Notes under the pieces: generated by a model
Database searches by the model: none
What the model was told of the DNA's origin: nothing
What the model saw: the letters and a program-made list of their open reading frames with translations, nothing else
Program-made: the position numbers and the translations under genes
In this document: positions 16,844-39,399 of the stretch, one piece after another
How positions within the stretch are numbered: position 1 is the stretch's first letter
Layout: each line of letters starts with the position of its first letter
Assembly: GCA_001789445.1 (NCBI GenBank)
Contig: MFZQ01000003.1
Coordinates: 2,796 to 66,795, forward strand
Direction of reading: 5' to 3'
From: Candidatus Roizmanbacteria bacterium RIFCSPHIGHO2_02_FULL_40_13b
GTDB taxonomy: Bacteria; Patescibacteriota; Microgenomatia; UBA1406; HO2-37-13b
Length of the DNA: 64,000 bases

Positions 16844-18181
16844 ATGAAATCACCACTTGTCTTACCAAAGATTGTTCAGGATTTTATTGAAACCTTTGAA
16901 AAAAACGGGTTCGAGGTGTACGTGGTTGGCGGGGCTGTACGAGATCTTATTTTAGGAAAAGAAATAACAAACTGGGATTTTACGACCAGTGCGGGCGTGG
17001 AAGAAATTCAAAAATTATTCCCTGATCATTTTTATAACAATGATTATGGAACAGTAACAGTAAAAAAAGAGAGTTTTCTTTTTGAAATTACACCTTATCG
17101 AAAAGAAAGCGATTATGCTGACCTTCGCCATCCGGGAAAAATTGAATGGGCAAAAACGATTGAGGAGGATCTGGCTCGGCGTGATTTTACGATCAATGCT
17201 ATTGCCTACGATAGGAAAAAAGTCATCGATCCATATGATGGACAGGGAGACATTGAGAAAAAGATTGTAAAAGCGGTCGGTGACGCTGATAAGCGATTTA
17301 ACGAAGATGCGCTTCGGCTCCTTCGCGCAGTCCGTATTGCTACTCAACTTGGATTTACTATTGAGGACGCGACAATGACTTCGATCAAAAAAAATGCTGA
17401 ACTAATACTTAAAATCTCGCAAGAACGAATTCGGGACGAACTTTTTAAAATTATTGCATCAACCCGCGGGTCAGACGGAATTTTTCTTTTGAGAGATACT
17501 GGACTCCTCAAACACGTCCTCCCCGAAGTTGAAGCATGTTTTGGTGTTGATCAGGTCAGCCCGGGCAGACATCATACCGTTGACGTTGGTACACATTTGG
17601 TGGAAGCGCTTCGACTTTGTCCATCAAGCGATACAATAACTCGTTTTGCAACACTTCTGCATGATATTGGAAAAACTCCCACATTTCGAAAAGATGAAAC
17701 AACTCAAATGATTACTTTTTACAATCATGAAATCGTTGGTGCAAAAATGGCGCGCGAAATCGCAGATCGTCTGCGTCTTTCCAAAAAAGATCGGGAAAAA
17801 TTAGTTACGCTTGTTCGGTTCCATATGTTCACGGTTTCTGAAAATCAAACAGATAGCGCGATTCGCCGGTTTATTCGAAATGTTGGAAAAGAATATATGT
17901 ACGACGCGCTTGATTTGCGCGTTGCAGACCGGTTGGGAAGCGGGGCAAAGTTAACGTCGTGGAGAACCGAGCTTTTCAAAAAACGACTTGAAGAGGTGCA
18001 ACACGAACCATTTTCGGTAAAAGACCTCAAAATTGACGGAAACGATGTGATGAAAACGCTCGGTCTCAAACCTAGCCCGAAAATCGGCGAAATTCTCCAG
18101 AAACTGTTTGATGAGGTTGTGGGTGAAGAGGTAAAGAATGAGAAAAAGGAACTTTTACAAAAGCTTTCCGAACTTAAATAA
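16844..18181 (+). CDS. cca: CCA-adding tRNA nucleotidyltransferase with HD domain
   Basis: VYVVGGAVRDLILGK, RDFTINA and an HD region HDIGK. Start moved to the ATG at 16844. Confidence 0.85.
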   Translation: MKSPLVLPKIVQDFIETFEKNGFEVYVVGGAVRDLILGKEITNWDFTTSAGVEEIQKLFPDHFYNNDYGTVTVKKESFLFEITPYRKESDYADLRHPGKIEWAKTIEEDLARRDFTINAIAYDRKKVIDPYDGQGDIEKKIVKAVGDADKRFNEDALRLLRAVRIATQLGFTIEDATMTSIKKNAELILKISQERIRDELFKIIASTRGSDGIFLLRDTGLLKHVLPEVEACFGVDQVSPGRHHTVDVGTHLVEALRLCPSSDTITRFATLLHDIGKTPTFRKDETTQMITFYNHEIVGAKMAREIADRLRLSKKDREKLVTLVRFHMFTVSENQTDSAIRRFIRNVGKEYMYDALDLRVADRLGSGAKLTSWRTELFKKRLEEVQHEPFSVKDLKIDGNDVMKTLGLKPSPKIGEILQKLFDEVVGEEVKNEKKELLQKLSELK

Positions 18182-18590
18182 CATCTCCTGGCTCTTTTCG
18201 GATGATTTTCAACTTATCAAATTCCTTATCGTACGAAATAATTGCCCATTCTTTTTTCTGAACCTGGGGAATTGAGGCAAGTAAGCAATCTACAAATTTG
18301 ATATTGTTGGTATTGTATAAATCTAAGGCCTCTATAGTTCCATAACCATCGATAACCTTAAGTCCATTAGTTGTTACCATGTCTCGAACAACTGTAACAA
18401 CTTCACTTTTATTGACTCTGTAAAATGACTCTAAAGTCCAAACAACTTCTGCAACAACCATTGTTGTTGTTATTGCATCAACTATTCCTGATTTTATTGC
18501 TTCTATTAGTTCTACACATTCCTTAAATGATTTTTCATTGTCTCTAGTTAGGATCCTTAGAAAGATATTGGTATCAATAAGATATTTCAT
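18174..18590 (-). CDS. vapC: PIN-domain toxin VapC
   Basis: MKYLIDTNIFLR PIN N-terminus. Its start overlaps the stop of the upstream AbrB-type gene by 4 nt. Confidence 0.8.
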   Translation of the reverse strand: MKYLIDTNIFLRILTRDNEKSFKECVELIEAIKSGIVDAITTTMVVAEVVWTLESFYRVNKSEVVTVVRDMVTTNGLKVIDGYGTIEALDLYNTNNIKFVDCLLASIPQVQKKEWAIISYDKEFDKLKIIRKEPGDVI

Positions 18591-18820
18591 ACCCGTTTAT
18601 ACCTTTTTTCGAATGCTTCACGAGCTTCTAGTACTGACTTACCTCTTGTTATGGGAAATTTACCAGCATATGAGAGAAAGTCTCCAACAGGACTAACCTT
18701 TAAATGATCCTTTTTTAAATCAAATTTAACCTTCCCATATTTTTTAATTCCTAATTTGTCTCTCAACGCTTGTGGTAGAGTTATCTGTCCTTTTTGAGTT
18801 ACTGTTGCTTGATATTGCAT
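18587..18820 (-). CDS. vapB: AbrB/SpoVT-type antitoxin VapB
   Basis: VTQKGQITLPQALRDKLGI swapped-hairpin motif. Confidence 0.75.
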   Translation of the reverse strand: MQYQATVTQKGQITLPQALRDKLGIKKYGKVKFDLKKDHLKVSPVGDFLSYAGKFPITRGKSVLEAREAFEKRYKRV

Positions 18821-18878
18821 ACGTATTATTTATTTGAAATTGGTAATACTTTCATTATAAGTATTACTTTTTCATTTG

Positions 18879-19826
18879 TCAATACCCTACTTTTTCCACC
18901 AACATCCAGTCAATCAAATTTTTCATACTTGTATCATTGTGCTTTGTAACCAATCCTCGATAGCTTCCACTGTTTTCCAAATTAAGATACGTTAGTATTC
19001 TTTTCCGTAGCCGTTTTTGCAATCTCCGCATATTCGGATATATATCACAGCCTAAAAAATGTAACCCACTTGCTACTGGAATAATCAAGCTATTTTTATT
19101 ATTTATCGTAAGTTTCAAAATATTATTGATAAAAAAAGTTATCAGAATCTCATATTCTTTAGCAATTTGACTATTCTCTGCCACCACTAAAAAATCGTCC
19201 CCATATCGAAGGTACCCTAAAGGTTTTACCGTATGTTCAACAAATCGATCTAGTTCGTTAAGATAAATATTGGCAAAAATCTGGCTGGTAAGATTACCGA
19301 TTGGCATCCCGGTACCTTTTTCCTTGACATAGTAACTATCAACAATCCTGTCTATTATTTTTAATGCACCGCGATCAAATACCTTTCTTCTTACTGTATT
19401 TTTCAGTATTTTATGATCTACTGTATCAAAAAATTTAGTTATATCAGACCTCCAAACATACCCGTATCGATATTTTCCTAATAAATATTGTGTTCGTTCA
19501 ATTGCTCTCAAAAGTCCTTTTCCTTTGCGACATGACCACACATCGTAGATAAAAGATTTATCAAAAAGAGCGGTCAAGTATTCGTTTACTAATCTATGAA
19601 CAATCCTGTCCAGAATTGGAGCTACTGAAATGGTTCTTTTTTTCTTATCAGTAACTTGAAATGTTCGATATAATCCATGTTTGTAGGTGCCTGTTACTAA
19701 ATCATGGTGTACTTGTGAAAGATTTTCCTCAAGATTATAAGTAAAAATATCCATTTCCGTAGTTCTTTTTTTCCCACGTTGAAATGCCTGCCAGGAAAGC
19801 CAAATCTGTGATAAACTTACGTCCAT
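18879..19826 (-). CDS. DGR-1 reverse transcriptase
   Basis: Carries the RT motifs, including MPIGNLTSQIFANIY (the [IL]GxxxSQ signature of DGR RTs) and the catalytic YGDDFLVV. It is adjacent to a TR/VR pair. Confidence 0.9.
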   Translation of the reverse strand: MDVSLSQIWLSWQAFQRGKKRTTEMDIFTYNLEENLSQVHHDLVTGTYKHGLYRTFQVTDKKKRTISVAPILDRIVHRLVNEYLTALFDKSFIYDVWSCRKGKGLLRAIERTQYLLGKYRYGYVWRSDITKFFDTVDHKILKNTVRRKVFDRGALKIIDRIVDSYYVKEKGTGMPIGNLTSQIFANIYLNELDRFVEHTVKPLGYLRYGDDFLVVAENSQIAKEYEILITFFINNILKLTINNKNSLIIPVASGLHFLGCDIYPNMRRLQKRLRKRILTYLNLENSGSYRGLVTKHNDTSMKNLIDWMLVEKVGY

Positions 19827-20175
19827 GGATGCAACAACTCTTCCAGTTATAATGCTGTTATTTGATGTCTATAAACAAGTTACTACAATCAGTGTAAAAT
19901 TACCTAAAAGATGGAATTATGGTCTGGGAATTAGTATTGAGAAAAGTGTTCTTGAATGTCTTGAATATCTCGTTATGGCTAAAAACGCCCCGAAGCAGTT
20001 AAAATCAGCGTATCTTATTAAAGCAAGTGCTCATTTGGAAATGATACGGTTCAAACTGCGCTTAATTCTCGAAAATAAACTTGCCAACGAAACCATAATT
20101 TTTCAAACACAGGCAAACATTGCCGAAGCTGGACGAATGCTTGGCGGGTGGCTCAAATCGACACAAAGTACCTAA
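19825..20175 (+). CDS. avd: DGR-1 Avd-like four-helix-bundle protein, opposite strand to the RT
   Basis: KLPKRWNYGLG...EAGRMLGGWLKS matches the four-helix-bundle (23S rRNA IVS / Avd) family pattern. Its ATG overlaps the RT ATG in a CATG palindrome. Confidence 0.75.
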   Translation: MDATTLPVIMLLFDVYKQVTTISVKLPKRWNYGLGISIEKSVLECLEYLVMAKNAPKQLKSAYLIKASAHLEMIRFKLRLILENKLANETIIFQTQANIAEAGRMLGGWLKSTQST

Positions 20176-20178
20176 ACC

Positions 20179-20289
20179 TCTCACCGTGGGGGCAGTACCC
20201 CAATTACCATTCTGGTTATCAGGATTGTCTGCATTCAACTTCAACTGCCTATTGTCACGATTCCAGTTACCATTCGGCACGTTGCCCGT
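20179..20289 (-). repeat. DGR-1 template repeat (TR1)
   Basis: 111-bp copy of 20519-20629. All 17 differences are A in this copy on the minus strand. AAY-rich. Confidence 0.9.
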
Positions 20290-20503
20290 AGTATGACCCA
20301 ATGCAATCTTTGTACATAAAAGGTCGCAACCTTTTCGACATGATCCCGCTTTGCGGGAAGGAAACACTGGGCTCATCGGTGAGAGGTTCTAGGATTTTGA
20401 CCTAAAGAACCATACGGTAGCCCTGCCAAAGGCAGAGATGCTATTCACCGTGGTATAAAGTATAGAAAAAAAACAAAGATAAAAAAAGAAGAAAAGAAAA
20501 AGA

Positions 20504-21568
20504 TCAAACACCAATGAGTCTCACCGTGGGGGCAGTACCCCAAAGACCAAACTGGCTACCAGGAGTGCCTGCATTCAACTCCAACTGCCTAATGCCACGA
20601 AACCAGTAACCATCCGGCACGAAGCCCGTTTGTGGATCAACATTACCTATAAGCCATACTGCGCTTTGCTGATTCCACTCATATGAGACTTGTCCTGTTT
20701 CATGAAGGTGAACAGCAAAATCGGTGAGAAAATCTTCGATTGTTCTGCCTGTTTCGCCTGCATACATCGGACCACTAAGTGTTGTGAGATAATCGCGTGG
20801 AGTTGCATTGGTTGCCAGTTGTGTTCTTCCTCCAACCGTTTGTGCTTGATGTGGTTGAGGTAATATAACTGTTGGTTCATCAAATCGAATACTCCAGCCA
20901 GGAACAGCACAAATTCTTGGATCAGTTAGTATTGTTTTTCTGGTTCGTCCACCATGATCGTCAGTAAAACGTTCGGGGAAATATCTCAAACCTTGCTTAG
21001 TAAGAACCCCACGAATTCCATCCCATATCCAGATAGGGTCGGTCGTGTTGACCGCGGCAGGGTGGTCGGCTTCATTTTCATCTCGTTTGGAGAGAAGTAG
21101 GGTGTTTGCCTTTGATCGTGCTATTATAACAATAGCTTCAGTCTTTTTGAGGAGATGTGTGGTTGGAGCGGCAAATGGGGTTAGATCAAGTCTTGAGAAT
21201 CCTTGAGCAGTTTTTCGTTCTGCTAACTCTTGATTTTGCTCGCTACGAAGTATGTTGACAAATTGCTCTCGGGTTGGAATTGGGTATCTTTTTACAAAAC
21301 TATGTTCAGTAATTCCAGTTTCTGCAAGAGATGCAACTCGGGTTTCAAATTGATGCACCAGCGCTTCTTCGCGTTGTTCGGGAGACAAGACAGGTTCTGT
21401 AGTTGAAACATACACAACCTGTTCTTCCCATGGAAGGTCTTTCACAAGACCCCCTTCTTTGGCAGCTAGAAAGGTTTTGAGCGTACCTTCAAGAAATTGT
21501 GCACCGATTTCATTACCATCCTCTCTATGCGCCTCAATCGCCCGCATATGTTCACGTTCCATTGCCAT
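20504..21568 (-). CDS. DGR-1 variable target protein (354 aa)
   Basis: The C-terminal 37 codons are VR1. No signal peptide. GC richer than the flanks. Confidence 0.85.
   Translation of the reverse strand: MAMEREHMRAIEAHREDGNEIGAQFLEGTLKTFLAAKEGGLVKDLPWEEQVVYVSTTEPVLSPEQREEALVHQFETRVASLAETGITEHSFVKRYPIPTREQFVNILRSEQNQELAERKTAQGFSRLDLTPFAAPTTHLLKKTEAIVIIARSKANTLLLSKRDENEADHPAAVNTTDPIWIWDGIRGVLTKQGLRYFPERFTDDHGGRTRKTILTDPRICAVPGWSIRFDEPTVILPQPHQAQTVGGRTQLATNATPRDYLTTLSGPMYAGETGRTIEDFLTDFAVHLHETGQVSYEWNQQSAVWLIGNVDPQTGFVPDGYWFRGIRQLELNAGTPGSQFGLWGTAPTVRLIGV
20519..20629 (-). repeat. DGR-1 variable repeat (VR1)
   Basis: See TR1. It ends 15 nt before the target stop codon. Confidence 0.9.
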
Positions 21569-35612: not shown

Positions 35613-36632
35613 ATGCGTAAGATTGCAGTTGGGTTAAATGGATTTGGGAGAATTGGAAGAGCGTTTACACGAATTGCACTGAACAATCCCGATATTGAAA
35701 TTCGAGCGATTAATACTGCGCATTCAAACACAGAGATCCTCGCCCATCTCCTTAAGTATGACTCTATCTACCGAACATTTGATAAGGATGTTAGTGCAAA
35801 AGGAGATAAGATTATCGTTGGATCCCGCGAGATTGTCTGTTATAACCACAAAAACCCTGAAGAGATTCCATGGGACCACCATAATATTGATGTCGTCATT
35901 GACTGTACCGGCGCATTTAAGACACGTGATGATTTGAGCAAGCATCTACGCGCTACCGTGCAGAAAGTTATCGTCACCGCACCTGTTTCAGATGAAACAA
36001 TTCCTCATATTGTTTTGGGGTCAAATAGTGATGGGTTTGATTTTAAAGCTAAAAATGCCGATATTATCTCGAATGCATCATGTACCACCAACTGTGCATC
36101 AATTATGACAAAAGTTCTCGATGATAATTTCAAAATAAAATCAGCATTTTTAACAACCGTACATGCATATACCAGTAGTCAAGAACTTCTTGACAACGCA
36201 TCTAAAAATGAAACACGTTCTCGTGGGGCGCCACTTTCGATTATTCCGACAACCACTGGGGCTGCGGATGCAGTATGCAAAACAACCGCGTGTGAAGCTG
36301 GAAGCTTAGGAGCTATCGCATTTCGGGTTCCCGTACCCGTCGGATCAATCTCTGATATGACGTGTCTCCTCGAAAAATCAACAACGGTTGAAGAAATTAA
36401 TGAGGTATTTAGAAAAGAGTCGGAAGGAAAACTTAAGGGAATTTTAGGATATGAAAAAACCCCGCTTGTTTCTTCTGACTATATCGGCTCGCCATTTTCC
36501 TGTACATTTGATCCTAATTACACGCAGGTTTTGAATGGAAACTTCGTCAAAATCTTCGGGTGGTACGATAATGAGTGGGGATACTCAAACCGCCTGGTTG
36601 ATTTGATAGAAAAATTATCGAAATATATTTAA
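35613..36632 (+). CDS. gap: Glyceraldehyde-3-phosphate dehydrogenase
   Basis: GLNGFGRIGR, the active site ASCTTNC, and WYDNEWGYS. Confidence 0.92.
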   Translation: MRKIAVGLNGFGRIGRAFTRIALNNPDIEIRAINTAHSNTEILAHLLKYDSIYRTFDKDVSAKGDKIIVGSREIVCYNHKNPEEIPWDHHNIDVVIDCTGAFKTRDDLSKHLRATVQKVIVTAPVSDETIPHIVLGSNSDGFDFKAKNADIISNASCTTNCASIMTKVLDDNFKIKSAFLTTVHAYTSSQELLDNASKNETRSRGAPLSIIPTTTGAADAVCKTTACEAGSLGAIAFRVPVPVGSISDMTCLLEKSTTVEEINEVFRKESEGKLKGILGYEKTPLVSSDYIGSPFSCTFDPNYTQVLNGNFVKIFGWYDNEWGYSNRLVDLIEKLSKYI

Positions 36633-37708
36633 CTCCAAAACCATACATTGTTTTGCAATTCTTTTGATAAACGGTATGTATTCGCATGGCTCAAATATCC
36701 AATATACGACTGGAGCGACTGATCGAATGTTTTTGTATCAATTTTCTCTTTTAACTTAGAAAATACTCTTCTCTTTGTCTTTGTCCGCGGCAGGCGATAG
36801 TGAGGTAAAACAATGTATCCCAAAAAATCTATTCCCCATTCAAGTCTCCGGATAATTATTTTATTTTCATGAAGTGAAAGTTTTAGGTGATTACTTAGAA
36901 AATCTCTTATTTGTTCAATTACTTGAGATATCCGGCTTTGATTTTTGAATAATATAACAAAATCGTCAGCATACCGAATATAGTGGTGGATCTTCAACCC
37001 ATGTTTGACATACTGATCAAGTTCGTTCATGTAAATATTAGCAAACACTTGGCTTGTGAGATTACCAAGAGGGATACCACGTGGAGATTCTATCGTCCCG
37101 CCTGCGACGGGACTCCAGAATGACACATTTCTTGTCATCCTGGACCGGAGGCCGAAGGCCGTAGGGATAGGATCCCAATTCACCTCAAAACTATCAATAA
37201 CCTCTGAAAGAAGTCGAATACTATTTTCATCTTGTATCTTCTTTGCAAGTAACTTTTTAAGAATCTCATGATCAACACTGGCAAAGAATTTATTGATGTC
37301 TAAATGAAGCGCCCAGCAATCTTGCGTATAGTTCTTGGAAACTTTACGGGTAAAAACTTCCAGTCGAGAAACTGCTTTATGAGTTCCTTTATTTAATCTG
37401 CATGAATAAGAGTCTGTGATAAATATTTTGTCAAAAAGTTGGTACAAATATGTGTACAACAAATGATGTACTACCCGATCCTGGACACTCGCTTTATGGA
37501 TATGTCTGCGCTTTGGATCATTAACATAGAATGATTCATATGAACCGTGTCTATATTTTTTAGTAACAAGATCTTGATATAGAGCAAAAAGATTGTCTTC
37601 AAGGTACCGCTCAAAAAGCTGGACATCTTTTTTACCACCCTTTCCCTTCCTAAATTCACCCCATGCACGAAAAACACTGTCCAGACTGACTAATGTGTTA
37701 TAATCCAT
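36629..37708 (-). CDS. DGR-2 reverse transcriptase carrying a ~28-codon repeat-element insertion
   Basis: IPLGNLTSQVFANIY and RYADDFVILF. It aligns with RT1 except for the extra NWDPIPTAFGLRSRMTRNVSFWSPVAGGTIESP. Start moved to MDYNTL because the upstream ATGACA is an element terminus. Confidence 0.85.
   Translation of the reverse strand: MDYNTLVSLDSVFRAWGEFRKGKGGKKDVQLFERYLEDNLFALYQDLVTKKYRHGSYESFYVNDPKRRHIHKASVQDRVVHHLLYTYLYQLFDKIFITDSYSCRLNKGTHKAVSRLEVFTRKVSKNYTQDCWALHLDINKFFASVDHEILKKLLAKKIQDENSIRLLSEVIDSFEVNWDPIPTAFGLRSRMTRNVSFWSPVAGGTIESPRGIPLGNLTSQVFANIYMNELDQYVKHGLKIHHYIRYADDFVILFKNQSRISQVIEQIRDFLSNHLKLSLHENKIIIRRLEWGIDFLGYIVLPHYRLPRTKTKRRVFSKLKEKIDTKTFDQSLQSYIGYLSHANTYRLSKELQNNVWFWS
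37100..37176. mobile_element. Palindromic repeat-element insertion inside RT2
   Basis: tccagaatgaca/tgtcatcctgga 12-bp inverted repeat plus a ggccgaaggcc core shared with the elements at 37718 and 55751. Absent from RT1 at the aligned position. Confidence 0.65.
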
Positions 37709-37717
37709 ATCTAAATT

Positions 37718-37763
37718 TGTCATTCCCGCGAAGGCCGAAGGTCCTCGTAAGGGGACGGGAATC
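37718..37763. mobile_element. TGTCAT/GGCCGAAGG MITE-like element between RT2 and avd2
   Basis: tgtcattcccgcgaaggccgaaggtcctcgtaaggggacgggaatc. Same termini and core as 55751-55826. Confidence 0.65.
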
Positions 37764-37795
37764 TATATAACATATGTCGAACAGTAACGAAGGTT

Positions 37796-37820
37796 CACAC
37801 ACACACACACACACACACAC
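37796..37820. repeat. (CA)12 dinucleotide microsatellite
   Basis: A 25-nt run of cacac...c read directly, between an ATG (37774) and the avd2 reading frame. Confidence 0.95.
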
Positions 37821-38179
37821 TGCGTGAGTTTGGCTTAGATATTCCCATATTCGGTGTATTATACGAGTTTTATAAATTGTTGTATCAATATACCAAGTTT
37901 TTCCCAAAAAAAGATCGGTACTCTCTCGGAAAAAAGATTGATACACTCGCACTTAGCCTAATTGAATTAGTCATTTTCGCAGGTAGCACGTCAAAAGAAA
38001 AGAAGCTTCCATATATCCAAAAGGCCATAGTTTCAGTTGACCTTATAAAAATTTTGCTTCGAGTTGCCAAAGATATTGATGCTCTTGAAGGCAAAAAATA
38101 CATCGTTCTTCAGCAAAACCTGCAGGAAATAGGAAGGCAGCTGGGAGGATGGAAAAAATCCATCCCCCCGCTTCTATAA
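37820..38179 (+). CDS. avd: DGR-2 Avd-like four-helix-bundle protein, start unresolved
   Basis: FFPKKDRYSLG...EIGRQLGGWKKS. Gap-free alignment with Avd1 extends 13 codons upstream of the first canonical start (TTG 37877), as far as the codons just downstream of the CA tract. The 37820 start (CTG) is nominal. Confidence 0.65.
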   Translation: MREFGLDIPIFGVLYEFYKLLYQYTKFFPKKDRYSLGKKIDTLALSLIELVIFAGSTSKEKKLPYIQKAIVSVDLIKILLRVAKDIDALEGKKYIVLQQNLQEIGRQLGGWKKSIPPLL

Positions 38180-38192
38180 AACAAGAAACTAT

Positions 38193-38313
38193 CTCGGAAC
38201 GACCACCTACATTCGGATTGTGATTGCCAGGATTCCAATTCGTATTGACATTCAGGTTACCGTCGGTATTGCGATTCGCATTCACGACGCGGTCCTCATT
38301 TCGCGAACCAGGC
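38193..38313 (-). repeat. DGR-2 template repeat (TR2)
   Basis: 121-bp copy of 38629-38749 encoding the Asn-rich RVVNANRNTDGNLNVNTNWNPGNHNPNVGGRSE. 26 of 34 mismatches fall at TR adenines. Confidence 0.85.
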
Positions 38314-38616
38314 GCCCATTCCAGTACCAAACGCCGTAGACACTCACCATCCTTCGATTGCTCCCCGGATTGTATTTTATTTGTCCCCCACCAGCTGGCG
38401 GGGAATCAAGCATCTGGCACGGAGTGTCTTGTTTTTCTCGTGTACGCTCAGGTACCGTCTGGTACCTAACTCTGACACGTTGTTTGAAAAACAACAATTT
38501 CGGTGTCCCTCCACCCACGGGCAGATGGAACCATTGACCTACTTTCAAAAGGTATTTTAACAGAAAAAAGGAAGTTCAAAGGAGAAAAGAAGCACAAAGG
38601 GAACCAAGTTATAAGC

Positions 38617-39399
38617 TCATTTTACTCCCTCGGAACGACCACCCATCGTCGGATAGCGATCGGCAGGCGCCCAAGCCGCATCGACGCACAGGCGACCGCC
38701 AGTAAGGCGACGCGCATCCACGACACGACCCCCACCCCGCGAACCAGGCAGACGGCTCCAGGTATTTATGTCAGGGTATACTCCTGTACGATCATGAAGT
38801 TCTTCACCAAAAACAATATATGTGTCTACTGTCATGCCATGCACACCCTGTTCTTGAATAGCCTGTATAAGTTGTGCTTCAGTAGTATCAAGATGTGGGG
38901 AATCAGCGCTGTCTTTTACCACTAGCCAACCAGTGCGTTCTTGTTCATTTTTGAGCGTATTACCGGGTTCCACCGTCCAGCTTTGCAAGTGTGGGTGAAT
39001 GACACCAAGATGTTCCCGTGTGACACCCTCTGGACGATAGATAAGCGCCCATCCGTCCTCGTGTAGTTGTTGTAGCTCTTCTTGGGAATAGTTACAAGGA
39101 GCAATCTCTACTGTAAGCTCGGCTCGGGGAGCAAGAATATTCCATCGGTTTGTCCAGTATGCTGTATACCTTTCAGGGGTTTTGACTCCTTCAGCACTGA
39201 ATTCTGTAGCAAGTGCAACGAGAGGATCAACTACAACTGCTTCTGGCGTCACATCTGATCGAGATAGTTCCTCAATTTGTCGGGCAAGAGCATTATGAGC
39301 TTGGGCTATATGAAGAAGTCCTTCAACAGCCAAGCGTTGACTATCGTTTTCAGGTAGCTCCGCAAGATTTTGTAATAGGTCCTGTTCTGCACGAAACAT
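38617..39399 (-). CDS. DGR-2 variable target protein (260 aa)
   Basis: The C-terminal ~40 codons are VR2. No signal peptide. GC-rich relative to the flanks. Confidence 0.8.
   Translation of the reverse strand: MFRAEQDLLQNLAELPENDSQRLAVEGLLHIAQAHNALARQIEELSRSDVTPEAVVVDPLVALATEFSAEGVKTPERYTAYWTNRWNILAPRAELTVEIAPCNYSQEELQQLHEDGWALIYRPEGVTREHLGVIHPHLQSWTVEPGNTLKNEQERTGWLVVKDSADSPHLDTTEAQLIQAIQEQGVHGMTVDTYIVFGEELHDRTGVYPDINTWSRLPGSRGGGRVVDARRLTGGRLCVDAAWAPADRYPTMGGRSEGVK
38629..38749 (-). repeat. DGR-2 variable repeat (VR2)
   Basis: See TR2. It ends 9 nt before the TGA stop. Confidence 0.85.

Follow-up and report, generated by a model that had tools for sequence, protein, structure and literature searches.

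Two DGR loci with the layout typical of CPR bacteria

The window, by which we mean the whole 64-kb stretch of DNA that was analysed, comes from Candidatus Roizmanbacteria, a CPR organism, and contains two diversity-generating retroelements (DGRs), DGR-1 and DGR-2. In both, the target gene, the template repeat (TR) and the reverse transcriptase (RT) gene are found on the minus strand, whilst avd, situated between the last two of these, is on the plus strand, giving the order target/variable repeat (VR) - TR - (avd, opposite strand) - RT. This is the geometry proposed by an earlier, sequence-only reading of the window. The components of DGR-1 are:

20504-21568, minus strand: target gene, 354 aa, its C-terminus carrying VR1
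20519-20629, minus strand: VR1, 85% identity to TR1
20179-20289, minus strand: TR1, 34 adenines, delimited by TR/VR comparison
19825-20175, plus strand: avd1, 116 aa, assigned from Avd profile matches and a conserved start
18879-19826, minus strand: RT1, 315 aa, Pfam RVT_1 (E=7.9e-17), motifs IGNLTSQ and YGDD

The corresponding components of DGR-2 are:

38617-39399, minus strand: target gene, 260 aa, bearing VR2
38624-38749, minus strand: VR2, recognised by homology to TR2
38188-38313, minus strand: TR2, delimited by TR/VR comparison
37877-38179, plus strand: avd2 as called, 100 aa, TTG start, N-terminally truncated
36629-37723, minus strand: RT2, 364 aa, RVT_1 (E=2.1e-22), motifs LGNLTSQ and YADD

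The [ILV]GxxxSQ motif is a hallmark of DGR reverse transcriptases, and GNLTSQ is invariant across 44 homologues. Read on the minus strand, every VR1-TR1 mismatch (17/17) is at a TR adenine, and the template strand of DGR-1 is thereby fixed. VR1 ends 15 nt before the stop codon of the target gene, for which no Pfam or NCBIfam match was found, and shares with TR a GC-rich end, GGGGUACUGCCCCCACGGUGAGA, that is putatively an IMH. A second natural VR1 allele shows 18 A-site differences; the two alleles occur in nature with identical TR, leader and Avd1, and every variable position is at a TR adenine. VR2 differs from TR2 by 36 mismatches, 27 at A sites and 9 elsewhere. Three natural VR2 alleles accompany an identical RT2, with 27/31 variable positions at TR adenines, and at 11 positions all VR2 alleles agree with one another and differ from TR2. 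Mismatches restricted to TR adenines were also seen in ~50 related loci. DGR-1 and DGR-2 are active DGRs of the B3 layout typical of CPR bacteria.

The plus-strand ORFs, previously suggested to be Avd-like, both match profiles of that family. Avd1 scores 39.8 bits (E=6.8e-10) against Pfam bAvd, 0.2 bits under the cutoff of 40, and 52.4 bits (E=5e-14) against NCBIfam DivGenRetAVD, for which the cutoff is 80. The values for Avd2 are 64.1 bits (E=1.9e-17) and 66.4 bits (E=2e-18), respectively, and both NCBIfam matches are nearly full length. Judged by these profiles, Avd1 and Avd2 are divergent members of the Avd family. TR abuts the avd stop codon in both loci, as had been noticed: the TR1-VR1 homology stops 3 nt short of the avd1 stop, and TR2 ends 8 nt from that of avd2.

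The sequence-only reading regarded this layout as unusual and suggested a survey of published catalogues. There the order is already named: it is architecture B3, TR-(avd)-RT, to which 90% of CPR DGRs belong (Wu et al. 2018, NAR, PMC5758913). Both loci conform to the B3 definition, in which avd is reversed between TR and RT with no further accessory gene. Gene order and strands are identical to those of other B3 CPR DGRs, with the target upstream on the RT strand in both, and the RT, Avd, TR/VR and A-mutagenesis signatures all agree, leaving no architectural difference. CPR B3 DGRs are reportedly also covered by Paul et al. 2017 (Nat Microbiol). The architecture of the two loci is thus already published and ordinary for CPR bacteria, and by itself is nothing new. 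The leader, the duplex bracketing TR, the avd/RT start overlap and the repeat tract described below are absent from the accessible papers, Wu et al. 2018 among them.

We compared ~160 related loci, 80 from genomes and 80 from metagenomes. In every related locus possessing avd, the gene is opposite to the RT strand, including 68+58 loci with avd upstream of the RT start. An Avd-like ORF occupies the same place in 75/82 loci, with family E-values down to 1e-57, and in most relatives the end of TR lies between -11 and +25 nt from the avd stop. The strand layout bears out the expectation that any transcript reading through from TR to RT is antisense to avd. Two relatives (L050 and L062) carry the leader+TR module and RT on opposite strands, with the avd/RT overlap unchanged; co-transcription of TR and RT is therefore not required. 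Promoter and terminator predictions across 18800-20700 occurred at chance level. A terminator-like hairpin at 20112-20124 on the minus strand was dismissed because it is not conserved in relatives.

The avd/RT junction and its repeat tract

In DGR-1 the two genes flanking the junction share the following element:

19824-19827, either strand: CATG with both start codons (RT1 and avd1), the smallest form of the family overlap

The bases are C (19824), A (19825), T (19826) and G (19827), the RT ATG being the complement of 19824-19826 and the avd ATG 19825-19827. The shared palindrome read from the sequence therefore holds base by base, as does the remark that no intergenic space is left for a promoter. 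The GenBank annotation gives the same 2-nt overlap; accessions for these loci are OGK19829/OGK19830, MGAZ01000045 and MGAP01000006. The norm for the DGR-1 family is a head-to-head avd/RT overlap of 17-26 nt, which has shrunk to CATG in this genome because the RT start has shifted 8 codons downstream. From residue 3 onwards RT1 aligns with the conserved N-terminus of its homologues, and no other in-frame ATG, GTG or TTG was found upstream of its start.

The arrangement could be a chance or annotation artefact, with spurious plus-strand ORFs or misassigned starts. The Avd scores lend this a little support, Avd1 falling just under the Pfam cutoff and both proteins under that of NCBIfam; moreover, an alternative avd1 ATG lies 27 nt downstream and some gene callers start RT1 further downstream, giving a 291-aa product. 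Against this, the avd ATG is conserved at the homologous site in 56/68 related loci and the RT residues ahead of the 291-aa start are conserved. Together with the Avd-like ORFs of the relatives and the A-site diversification of VR seen in nature for both DGRs, these observations refute an artefact, to which we attach a negligible probability. The head-to-head avd/RT pair, its 5' ends overlapping in the DGR-1 family, would constitute one of two modules of these loci.

In the DGR-2 family, a simple-sequence repeat at the avd/RT junction takes the place of the overlap. The features concerned are:

37774-37876, plus strand: upstream part of avd2, comprising an ATG (37774-37776), (CA)12 and the N-terminal helix codons LREFGLDIPIFGVLYEFYK
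37796-37819: (CA)12 tract, between avd2 as called and RT2, in the 5' coding part of avd2

The tract is the sole dinucleotide repeat of at least 6 units in the window. The avd2 frame and the conserved N-terminal helix run upstream past the TTG at 37877 and through (CA)12, and the TTG is therefore a truncated start. The ATG at 37774 is out of frame at 12 units and in frame at 10 or 13. Ten contigs encode an identical RT2 with identical flanks, and among these the tract has 12, 11 and 10 units in 7, 2 and 1 contigs, respectively. One natural (TG)10 contig encodes a full-length Avd of 133 aa, as had been predicted beforehand. The tract is thus polymorphic, and its length determines whether the full-length Avd frame is intact; part of the differences in dinucleotide tract length between assemblies could be assembly error. 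A tract was found at the homologous site in 38/43 close relatives of RT2, with differing motifs: (GT)6-14, G9-13, (CCTGT)7 and (CTGT)9.

We infer from these sequences that variation in tract length may switch Avd2 on and off, i.e. phase-variable control of the DGR. The ratio of ON to OFF loci is near 1:2, which is also the neutral-drift expectation. An initial observation that 17/19 OFF loci are one unit from ON was dropped as evidence, being largely what arithmetic predicts. A literature search for repeat-controlled DGRs found no relevant report. Contingency loci in which simple sequence repeats (SSRs) drive phase variation by slipped-strand mutation are described in Haemophilus, Neisseria and Campylobacter (PMC3546556, PMC3315296). 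As in those loci, a long tract of short units lies in the 5' coding region, its copy number varies among otherwise identical natural sequences, and the frame is restored at certain lengths. Here, however, the host is a CPR bacterium, the switched gene would be the accessory protein of a hypermutation system, and the tract sits in a head-to-head gene junction, where, on the RT strand, it additionally provides GTG codons. Judging by the length-variable repeat, slipped-strand mutation may turn some DGRs on and off, which, if true, would place a targeted hypermutation system under a stochastic switch. Such a switch could explain why DGR-2 shows signs of less recent activity.

A structured leader upstream of TR and its duplex with the TR end

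The interval between VR and TR, 165-230 nt long, is a covarying multi-helix leader. Its features in the window are as follows:

20290-20453, minus strand: DGR-1 leader RNA, fold z-score -3.90
20414-20451, minus strand: leader helix P1
20385-20411, minus strand: leader helix P2
20364-20374 paired with 20295-20304, minus strand: leader helix P3
20345-20357, minus strand: leader helix P4
20318-20334, minus strand: leader helix P5, with a UGCG tetraloop
20459-20464, minus strand: -10-like hexamer TATACT, ending 5 nt ahead of P1, candidate promoter of the DGR RNA
38314-38545, minus strand: DGR-2 leader RNA, fold z-score -3.29

In a MAFFT alignment of 33 loci, 91.0% of cells in the leader helices are paired, against 71.1% in shuffled alignments (0/500, relatedness uncorrected). 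Pairing in the same loci falls to 35-47% when the partner columns are slid, a control biased somewhat in favour of the helices, which had been drawn manually on these sequences and were tested afterwards. Compensatory changes on both sides are seen for 35/39 leader pairs across the 33 loci. P3 is 97% paired, with all of its pairs covarying (10/10). A covariance model, R1, matches DGR-1 at 20290-20398 (52.2 bits, E=1.7e-8) and locates the leader domain directly 5' of TR in 48/80 loci. Sixteen of these were outside the seed, and in them 93% of cells are paired and 22/22 pairs covary. For the DGR-2 family leader, RNAalifold on 21 loci gave 34 pairs, 31 of which have compensatory changes. The fold z-scores counted as evidence for the leader are -3.90, -3.53 and -3.29. 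R1 detects neither the DGR-2 leader nor Saccharibacteria-type leaders; we regard the leaders of DGR-1 and DGR-2 as analogous, homology not being demonstrable with R1.

RNAalifold on the raw alignment of 125 nt upstream from 49 loci, which aligned poorly, recovered P3 alone, and this was overcome by narrowing the alignment to the main family. A 41-nt "deletion" in the leader of one relative (L173) proved to be a scaffold gap of Ns. No Rfam family was found for the leader, either with gathering thresholds across the whole window or by E-value over 20100-20520; the single match was to a miRNA and was judged to be chance.

A -10 hexamer matching at least 5/6 positions and ending 2-16 nt before P1 is found in 17/33 loci, compared with 5.8% of random positions. 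TATACT was not called by the consensus promoter scan because it has no -35 match. The terminators of the target genes precede the -10-like element. The other module would be a self-contained DGR RNA unit downstream of the target gene, with the predicted order -10-like element, leader of 165-230 nt (P1-P5), TR and a tail of ~12-16 nt.

The leader also pairs with the far side of TR. The tail and the last 7-10 nt of TR form a duplex with a leader strand ~100 nt upstream of TR, made up as follows:

20377-20388, minus strand: 5' strand of the DGR-1 duplex, AACCUCUCACCG, putative analogue of a primer strand
20175-20186, minus strand: 3' strand of the DGR-1 duplex, CGGUGAGAGGUU, comprising the last 8 nt of TR, a gap of 3 nt and one base (the first) of the avd1 stop
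38427-38435, minus strand: 5' strand of the DGR-2 duplex, AAAACAAGA, within the DGR-2 leader
38178-38186, minus strand: 3' strand of the DGR-2 duplex, UCUUGUUUU, overlapping the avd2 stop codon

If one bulge is allowed, pairing in DGR-1 reaches ~20171. The sequences of the duplex differ between clades, and in every case it is the locus's own TR end that is complemented. The first scores (Smith-Waterman with G-U pairs, and RNAduplex over 200 nt) were significant but weak against a high background, energy-based duplex scores being noisy on AU-rich backgrounds, and were replaced by the longest perfect helix and column-based pair counts. The longest perfect helix formed with a locus's own tail is longer than those formed with other tails, with shuffled tails or with downstream sequence (in family 1, p from 1e-10 to 8e-14; in family 2, from 4e-4 to 2e-5), the effect being modest in size (mean longest helix of 8.0 nt against 6.0-6.2 nt). 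The position of the duplex relative to TR is tight, at -102 and -113, and it is present in the minimum-energy fold of the full RNA. The nucleotide after the duplex strand varies, being A in DGR-1 and L001 and G/U elsewhere. In DGR-1, P2 and the duplex have overlapping strands, 3' in P2 and 5' in the duplex, and the two pairings therefore compete.

A proposed leader-first DGR RNA and its alternatives

In the accessible literature, the region downstream of TR is taken as the structured part of the DGR RNA, and a literature search for an upstream or permuted DGR RNA found no relevant report. The Bordetella RNP contains two adjacent duplexes, a stem-loop with adenosines after it, and a UNCG loop (bioRxiv 10.1101/2023.10.23.563531), and the elements described here come in the same order. 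A duplex at the TR 3' end is found in both RNAs, as is a neighbouring duplex whose partner strand is just 5' of TR, followed by a hairpin with adenosines and a UNCG-capped hairpin. In our loci this Bordetella-type pairing is present and covaries, but it is provided by the 5' leader. Like the BPP-1 DGR (mtd-avd-TR-brt; Handa et al. 2018, PMC6182149), DGR-1 and DGR-2 combine Avd with an RT and transfer TR to VR adenine-specifically. They differ in that avd lies on the other strand, downstream of TR, that antisense avd in the DGR-1 family is without a structured region, and that the accessory RNA would be 5' of TR rather than 3', i.e. permuted.

The resulting topology is akin to that of a retron. 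In retron msr-msd RNA, the 3' end of the template region (a2) is base-paired to a 5' strand (a1), structured RT-binding hairpins separating the two; reading of the template begins at its 3' end, next to the a1/a2 stem, and the primer is a 2'-OH of a nucleotide beside the 5' strand. The duplex between the leader strand and the TR end resembles the a1/a2 stem. In contrast to retrons, the RT belongs to the DGR-type clade with [ILV]GxxxSQ, Avd is required, and the template is a protein-coding repeat that is mutagenised at A and homed into VR.

By this analogy, we infer that the DGR RNA is leader-first: it would be the Bordetella RNA in circularly permuted form, its topology like that of a retron. 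The leader would be the functional equivalent of the Bordetella spacer (Sp) RNA, placed 5' of TR. Its primer-like strand, paired with the TR 3' end, would serve in priming; the hairpin just ahead of this strand would bind Avd, and P3, which adjoins TR, would be comparable to the cPRT-stop duplex. The remainder of the leader would supply a hairpin, an adenosine run and then the UNCG-capped hairpin. Analogy likewise underlies the provisional placing of the two RNA ends and of the priming nucleotide, and the part given to each helix. Such an RNA would share with avd merely the stop codon and last few codons, which would explain how avd can lie directly 3' of TR on the opposite strand. Taken as a whole, the two-module explanation, with its leader-first RNA and its repeat-bearing DGR-2 junction, is in our judgement probable.

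It is conceivable, if unlikely, that the leader is a genuine structured RNA on TR without being equivalent to Sp. Its role might then be in stability or processing of the TR RNA, in recruitment of RT/Avd with no primer supplied, or in control of transcription, with priming from, for example, nicked target DNA or a downstream nucleotide. The support for the leader, namely structure and covariation, is compatible with this, as are the different leaders of the two families and the lack of conservation past the duplex strand. However, the order and spacing of the elements match the Bordetella RNP point by point (a primer-like strand, a linker of 1-4 nt, a duplex whose partner abuts TR, and a hairpin with an A-run), and the duplex in every case involves the TR 3' end, the necessary starting point of cDNA synthesis.

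The sequence-only reading proposed a Bordetella-like arrangement (TR-Sp-brt), in which TR, a spacer antisense to the avd 3' region and RT form one minus-strand transcript, and raised the possibility that the avd sequence is used twice and that avd expression is coupled to TR-RT transcription through antisense. The layout invites such a model, with TR and RT sharing a strand around avd and TR abutting the avd stop, meaning that any 3' extension of the RNA is antisense avd. Moreover, the authors of the Bordetella RNP work reported putative stem-loops directly 3' of TR in many Avd-type DGRs including those of CPR (bioRxiv 10.1101/2023.10.23.563531), a survey that used 100 nt downstream of TR as the putative Sp. 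The fold suggested by that reading nevertheless revealed no structured spacer in the DGR-1 family: the predicted fold of antisense avd1 does not outdo that of shuffled sequence (z=+0.64), DGR-1 has nothing resembling the ~140-nt structured RNA found immediately 3' of TR in Bordetella, and RNAalifold on antisense avd returned 0 consensus pairs in 33 DGR-1-family loci and likewise 0 in 32 DGR-2-family loci. The conserved Avd LGGW codons change freely at their third positions, the covarying structure sits upstream of TR, and in one subgroup of relatives (L136-L155) a perfect terminator-like hairpin separates TR from the avd stop. The two relatives with leader+TR opposite RT also argue against a single transcript. 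We consider this combined model improbable, and antisense avd as a spacer RNA is mostly not supported; antisense coupling of avd and RT expression, taken by itself, may exist. Dual use survives to a limited extent, in that the stop codon and last 1-4 codons of avd do lie in the 3' strand of the duplex; the structured antisense spacer, in the DGR-1 family, does not.

A point in favour of a downstream spacer is found in DGR-2:

38139-38172, minus strand: antisense avd2 hairpin, GGGGGGAUGGA paired with UCCAUCCUCCC, at the Avd2 codons GGWKKSIPP

This hairpin lies 16 nt after TR (z=-3.68). Similar hairpins occur in 8 relatives, which RNAalifold fails to recover. Given its stability in DGR-2 and these relatives, there may be a downstream contribution in the DGR-2 family.

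B3 DGRs make up most DGR diversity in CPR bacteria. Extending the leader-first reading to all of them is a more general claim, on which we judge the chances to be even: B3 DGRs would use a circularly permuted, retron-like RNA with the whole spacer, including the priming strand, 5' of TR and clamped to the TR 3' end by a duplex at the avd stop, permitting an inverted avd directly behind TR. If true, RNA models and designs that take 100-140 nt downstream of TR as the spacer are misplaced for B3 DGRs, and the RNA for cDNA synthesis in this very large class of DGRs would appear to lie upstream of the template. The leader-TR unit is compact, at ~290 nt, plus RT and Avd.

Organisation and occurrence of the cassettes

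Gene calls and the comparison of template repeats (TR) with variable repeats (VR) bore out the coordinates and strands given for both loci by the sequence-only reading, and the gene order is the same in DGR-2 as in DGR-1.

Features of the two DGR cassettes
18879-19826, - strand: RT1, DGR-1
19825-20175, + strand: avd1, DGR-1
20179-20289, template strand -: TR1
20504-21568, - strand: DGR-1 target
20519-20629, template strand -: VR1
36629-37723, - strand: RT2, DGR-2
37877-38179, + strand: avd2 as called, TTG start
38188-38313: TR2, DGR-2
38617-39399, - strand: DGR-2 target
38624-38749: VR2, DGR-2

Read on the minus strand, 17/17 mismatches between TR1 and VR1 fall at TR adenines, and the template strand is therefore that of the target and RT. 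TR2 and VR2 differ at 27 A sites and 9 others. The antisense avd stop codon lies 3 nt (DGR-1) and 8 nt (DGR-2) beyond the end of the TR-VR homology. As proposed, the + strand ORFs are Avd-like: Pfam bAvd scores 39.8 (avd1) and 64.1 bits (avd2), and NCBIfam DivGenRetAVD (E=5e-14 and 2e-18) covers nearly the full length of both, yet scores under the model's strict cutoff. The GenBank record of the host, Candidatus Roizmanbacteria, annotates RT1 and Avd1 as hypothetical and gives them an identical 2-nt overlap. Identity is 34% between the RTs of the two cassettes and also 34% between their Avds, which makes the cassettes old paralogues or independent acquisitions and rules out a recent duplication. 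Directly downstream of RT1 (18174-18820, - strand) come genes for a 138-aa PIN-domain toxin and a 77-aa MazE/AbrB-like antitoxin, the stop codon of one overlapping the start codon of the other.

The inverted avd had been thought unusual. This was not upheld, because the layout is the published norm for CPR DGRs, architecture B3 or 'TR-(avd)-RT', where parentheses denote the reverse strand (Wu et al. 2018, PMC5758913), and our survey of relatives agrees. At E<1e-20 there are 2158 homologues of RT1, and those with names come mostly from CPR/Patescibacteria lineages. When 80 genome loci gathered via RT alignment were added to the two window cassettes, an Avd-like ORF was found in 75/82 loci and on the RT strand in 0, lying head-to-head with the RT start in 68 of these loci. 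Loci L055, L063, L070 and L071 have a different cassette order, in which avd is found ~1.1 kb downstream of RT and is again encoded opposite to it. The distance from avd stop to TR in the genome loci is mostly -11 to +24 nt, and ~50 of them show A-only TR/VR mismatches. Among 80 RT2-related metagenome loci avd is upstream in 58, on the opposite strand in 58/58, with TR 2-50 nt from the avd stop in most. The architecture of DGR-1 and DGR-2 is thus already known; the parts deserving experiments are an RNA whose structured leader would precede TR and a probable control of Avd by a repeat tract.

The CATG said to be shared by RT1 and avd1 was confirmed: the sequence reads C19824 A19825 T19826 G19827 and so holds both start codons. 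An avd-strand ATG is present at the homologous site in 56/68 loci. In most of these the RT starts 15-24 nt further upstream (consensus MxGxxSIDLSL), giving a head-to-head overlap of 17-26 nt between the ORFs. The window has ATA where the ancestral RT ATG stood and ATG in place of a conserved Ile codon, which reduces the overlap to the palindrome; CATG is found at the homologous site in four other loci. The overlap is thus a real and conserved one, of which the window version is the minimal form. The promoter of each gene must lie within the other gene, and a consensus promoter scan at DGR-1 returned candidates at chance level only. Many RT2 relatives (L082-L105, region just upstream of RT, e.g. 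L090:1489-1515) encode an RT N-terminus ...C-M-H-I-D-Y... as TGT ATG CAT; the ATGCAT palindrome is an ATG on both strands, making a second family with divergent starts that share a palindrome.

In nature DGR-1 is functional: two VR1 alleles are found on contigs whose Avd1, TR and leader are identical. Both differ from TR at adenines only (at 17 and at 18 sites), and 9 sites distinguish one allele from the other. Contigs with identical RT2 carry three VR2 alleles with 31 variable positions, 27 of them TR adenines. At eleven positions the three natural VR2 alleles (L161-L169) agree mutually and differ from TR2 (38188-38313), where TR has 4 A, 3 C, 2 T and 2 G; the seven non-A sites are not accounted for by copying from the present TR2.

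A structured leader upstream of TR

It had been suggested that antisense avd RNA just 3' of TR serves as a structured spacer (Sp). In DGR-1 the 189 nt after TR fold at -39.4 kcal/mol vs a shuffled mean of -42.0 (z=+0.64). Across 33 DGR-1-family loci RNAalifold predicted zero pairs in the 175 nt after TR, and the conserved Avd LGGW codons are free to vary at their third positions; 0 pairs were likewise predicted on the antisense-avd side of the DGR-2 family. The 198-nt stretch that follows TR2 does fold well (z=-3.68), owing to one 11-bp GC-rich hairpin at 38139-38172(-), 16 nt after TR2, in the Avd2 C-terminal codons GGWKKSIPP. Eight relatives (L081, L089, L090, L096, L102, L113, L119, L128) have comparable ones, with GCUUGGUGG as 5' strand and the antisense of LGGW as 3' strand; RNAalifold fails to recover this hairpin downstream of TR in the DGR-2 family, and the DGR-1 family has none (mean z-score -0.2). 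The DGR-2 hairpin could be a 3'-end/terminator structure or a protein-binding hairpin. Support for an antisense-avd spacer is largely absent, and the conserved accessory RNA is the leader upstream of TR.

Strong structure marks the non-coding segment that separates VR from TR (229 nt in DGR-1, about 270-320 nt in relatives). The DGR-1 leader, 167 nt long, folds with z=-3.90, and the full DGR-1 RNA, from P1 through 14 nt past TR, with z=-3.53.

Recurring elements of the DGR-1-family leader, 5' to 3'
P1: ACGGUGAAUAG ... hairpin ... GCUACCGU
P2: long variable hairpin, after P1
After P2: strand complementary to the TR 3' end
UGAG, then helix P3; its 3' strand stops a few nt short of TR
P4: hairpin within P3, then GAAAAA(A), often with motif GCAAACCAAUGC
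P5: hairpin within P3, UGCG cap

Helices were placed by hand on a MAFFT alignment of 33 loci built without fitting to any structure. Standard pairs filled 91.0% of 1226 cells vs 71.1% after shuffling (0/500 shuffles reached 91.0%), and 35-47% when partner columns were slid. Changes on both sides were seen at 35/39 pairs, with 275 compensatory cells vs 85 after shuffling; P3 is 97% paired and 10/10 of its pairs covary. R1, a covariance model of the 3' half of this leader, matches the window at 20290-20398(-) (52.2 bits, E=1.7e-8) and 48/80 genome loci, 16 of them outside the seed; its alignment has 93.3% of cells paired and 22/22 pairs covarying. All but two (46/48) of the genome matches are on the RT strand and immediately precede TR; the exceptions are L050 and L062. 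No Rfam family matches the window leader. The DGR-2 family leader has motifs of its own (GUAGGUUAAUG, CACCGAAAU, GUCAGAG, AAGACACUCC, AUAAAAUACAG); the window copy folds with z=-3.29, and RNAalifold on 21 loci gives 34 pairs, 31 with compensatory changes.

In both families a leader strand located ~100 nt ahead of TR is complementary to the final 7-10 nt of TR and to some 10-12 nt past its end, an extension that takes in the avd stop codon and the last 1-4 avd codons. The duplex sequence varies among clades yet always fits the TR end of its own locus.

Strands of the long-range duplex
Window DGR-1 and L001: CUCUCACCG with CGGUGAGAG
Seven loci: UAGACCCUUA with UAAGGGUCUA
Other loci: AAAGCACAUAA with UUAUGUGCUUU
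DGR-2: AAAACAAGA with UCUUGUUUU
L114: AAAAUAAAACACUUC with its complement

The seven core pairs are 85% paired in the 33-locus alignment and five covary. The longest perfect Watson-Crick helix between each leader and its own tail (the short RNA 3' of TR) was compared with those formed with other loci's tails, shuffled tails and 200 nt of antisense avd; the own-tail helix was longer than all controls (p 3e-9 to 8e-14 in the DGR-1 family, 2e-3 to 2e-5 in the DGR-2 family). The position of the duplex relative to TR is fixed (medians -102 and -113 nt, respectively), and the minimum-energy fold predicted for the full DGR-1 RNA includes it. Through this duplex the leader holds the 3' end of TR, with just the extreme end of avd in common. 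Since the duplex reaches the avd stop and last codons, the suggested dual use of avd sequence is real, but in DGR-1 it amounts to only ~12-16 nt. In the window (20411-20453 and 20175-20192, - strand) the P1 5' strand (CACGGUGAAUAG) resembles the TR 3' end (CACGGUGAGAGG) and the P2 3' strand overlaps the duplex 5' strand, so alternative pairings are possible.

A -10 hexamer (at least 5/6 match) ends 2-16 nt before P1 in 17/33 loci vs 5.8% at random positions; the DGR-1 candidate is TATACT at 20459-20464 (- strand). Terminator-like hairpins of the target gene stand ahead of the hexamer in many loci. In L050 (5024-5116, - strand) and L062 (3715-3806, - strand) the complete unit (P1, P5, TR and tail, with an intact duplex) is found on the strand opposite RT and downstream of it, together with the target gene; the avd/RT overlap is unchanged and TR abuts the RT stop codon, not the avd stop. 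A DGR-2 subgroup (L136-L155) has a perfect hairpin between TR and the avd stop. The hexamer, the units of L050 and L062 and this hairpin argue that the DGR RNA may be its own transcription unit, which need not run through avd into RT.

Comparison with the Bordetella RNA

In the cryo-EM structure of the Bordetella particle, Sp is base-paired in two duplexes that lie side by side: the TR 3' end takes part in the template:primer duplex, where priming starts from Sp A56, and the segment immediately ahead of TR on its 5' side takes part in the other, the cPRT stop; next come a small stem-loop with adenosines, a single-stranded 'thumb ring' and an RT-binding stem-loop, and an Avd-binding stem-loop lies directly ahead of the primer strand (bioRxiv 10.1101/2023.10.23.563531). 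The CPR leader has the same order of elements but is placed before TR. Its proposed course would run from hairpin(s) P1/P2 to the strand pairing with the TR 3' end, a 1-4 nt linker, the P3 5' strand, P4 with its A-run, a single-stranded motif, P5 (UNCG-type loop), the P3 3' strand and TR. The CPR RNA would then be a circular permutation, as if the Bordetella RNA were cut between TR and the Avd-binding hairpin and its ends rejoined. The retron msr-msd RNA includes an a1/a2 stem, comparable to the long-range duplex, and would share its topology with the CPR leader-TR RNA. A leader-first RNA would explain why avd can sit directly behind TR on the other strand. By this analogy, we consider functional equivalence of the CPR leader and Bordetella Sp slightly more probable than its absence. 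A survey of RNA elements in all Avd-type DGRs took 40 nt upstream and 100 nt downstream of TR (bioRxiv 10.1101/2023.10.23.563531), and a 2022 review gives a 'trailing' RNA as the structured part of the DGR RNA. No description of an upstream accessory RNA in DGRs was found in the literature searched, that survey and review included and Paul et al. 2017 outside its scope.

A repeat tract at the avd2/RT2 junction

The window has a single dinucleotide repeat of at least 6 units, (CA)12 at 37796-37819, flanked by the antisense of the Avd N-terminal 'LDIP' helix on one side and the RT N-terminus on the other. Of 43 close RT2 relatives, 38 have a tract at the homologous position, as (GT)6-14, G9-13, (CCTGT)7 or (CTGT)9; the comparison covers L081-L122 and L161-L170. 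The avd2 frame is open upstream through the tract and codes for a conserved helix, LREFGLDIPIFGVLYEFYK, so the called TTG start truncates Avd2. With 12 units the ATG at 37774-37776 falls out of frame, whereas lengths of 10 or 13 bring it into frame. Tract length was compared in ten contigs, from different samples, that have identical RT2 and flanks: seven have 12 units, two have 11 and one has 10, and the 10-unit contig encodes a 133-aa Avd, matching the prediction. These data fit slipped-strand phase variation of Avd, with the tract probably acting as a switch for the DGR, and assembly error at such tracts may contribute; the window copy of avd2 would be in an OFF or truncated state. No paper joining DGRs with phase variation was found in a literature search. 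An inverted repeat, ATTCCCG...CGGGAAT (37727-37765, + strand), lies between the RT2 start and (CA)12.

Nine DGR-1-family loci also have dinucleotide tracts, (AC)n, (TC)n or (GA)n with 6-19 units, within their RT reading frames: L033:4361-4386, L035:2035-2066, L039:4506-4517, L040:1526-1543, L042:2902-2915, L044:4359-4380, L047:1143-1160, L048:1253-1278 and L064:2804-2841. Some CPR DGRs may have an RT that is itself phase-variable; that of L048 is broken into two ORFs on either side of its tract.
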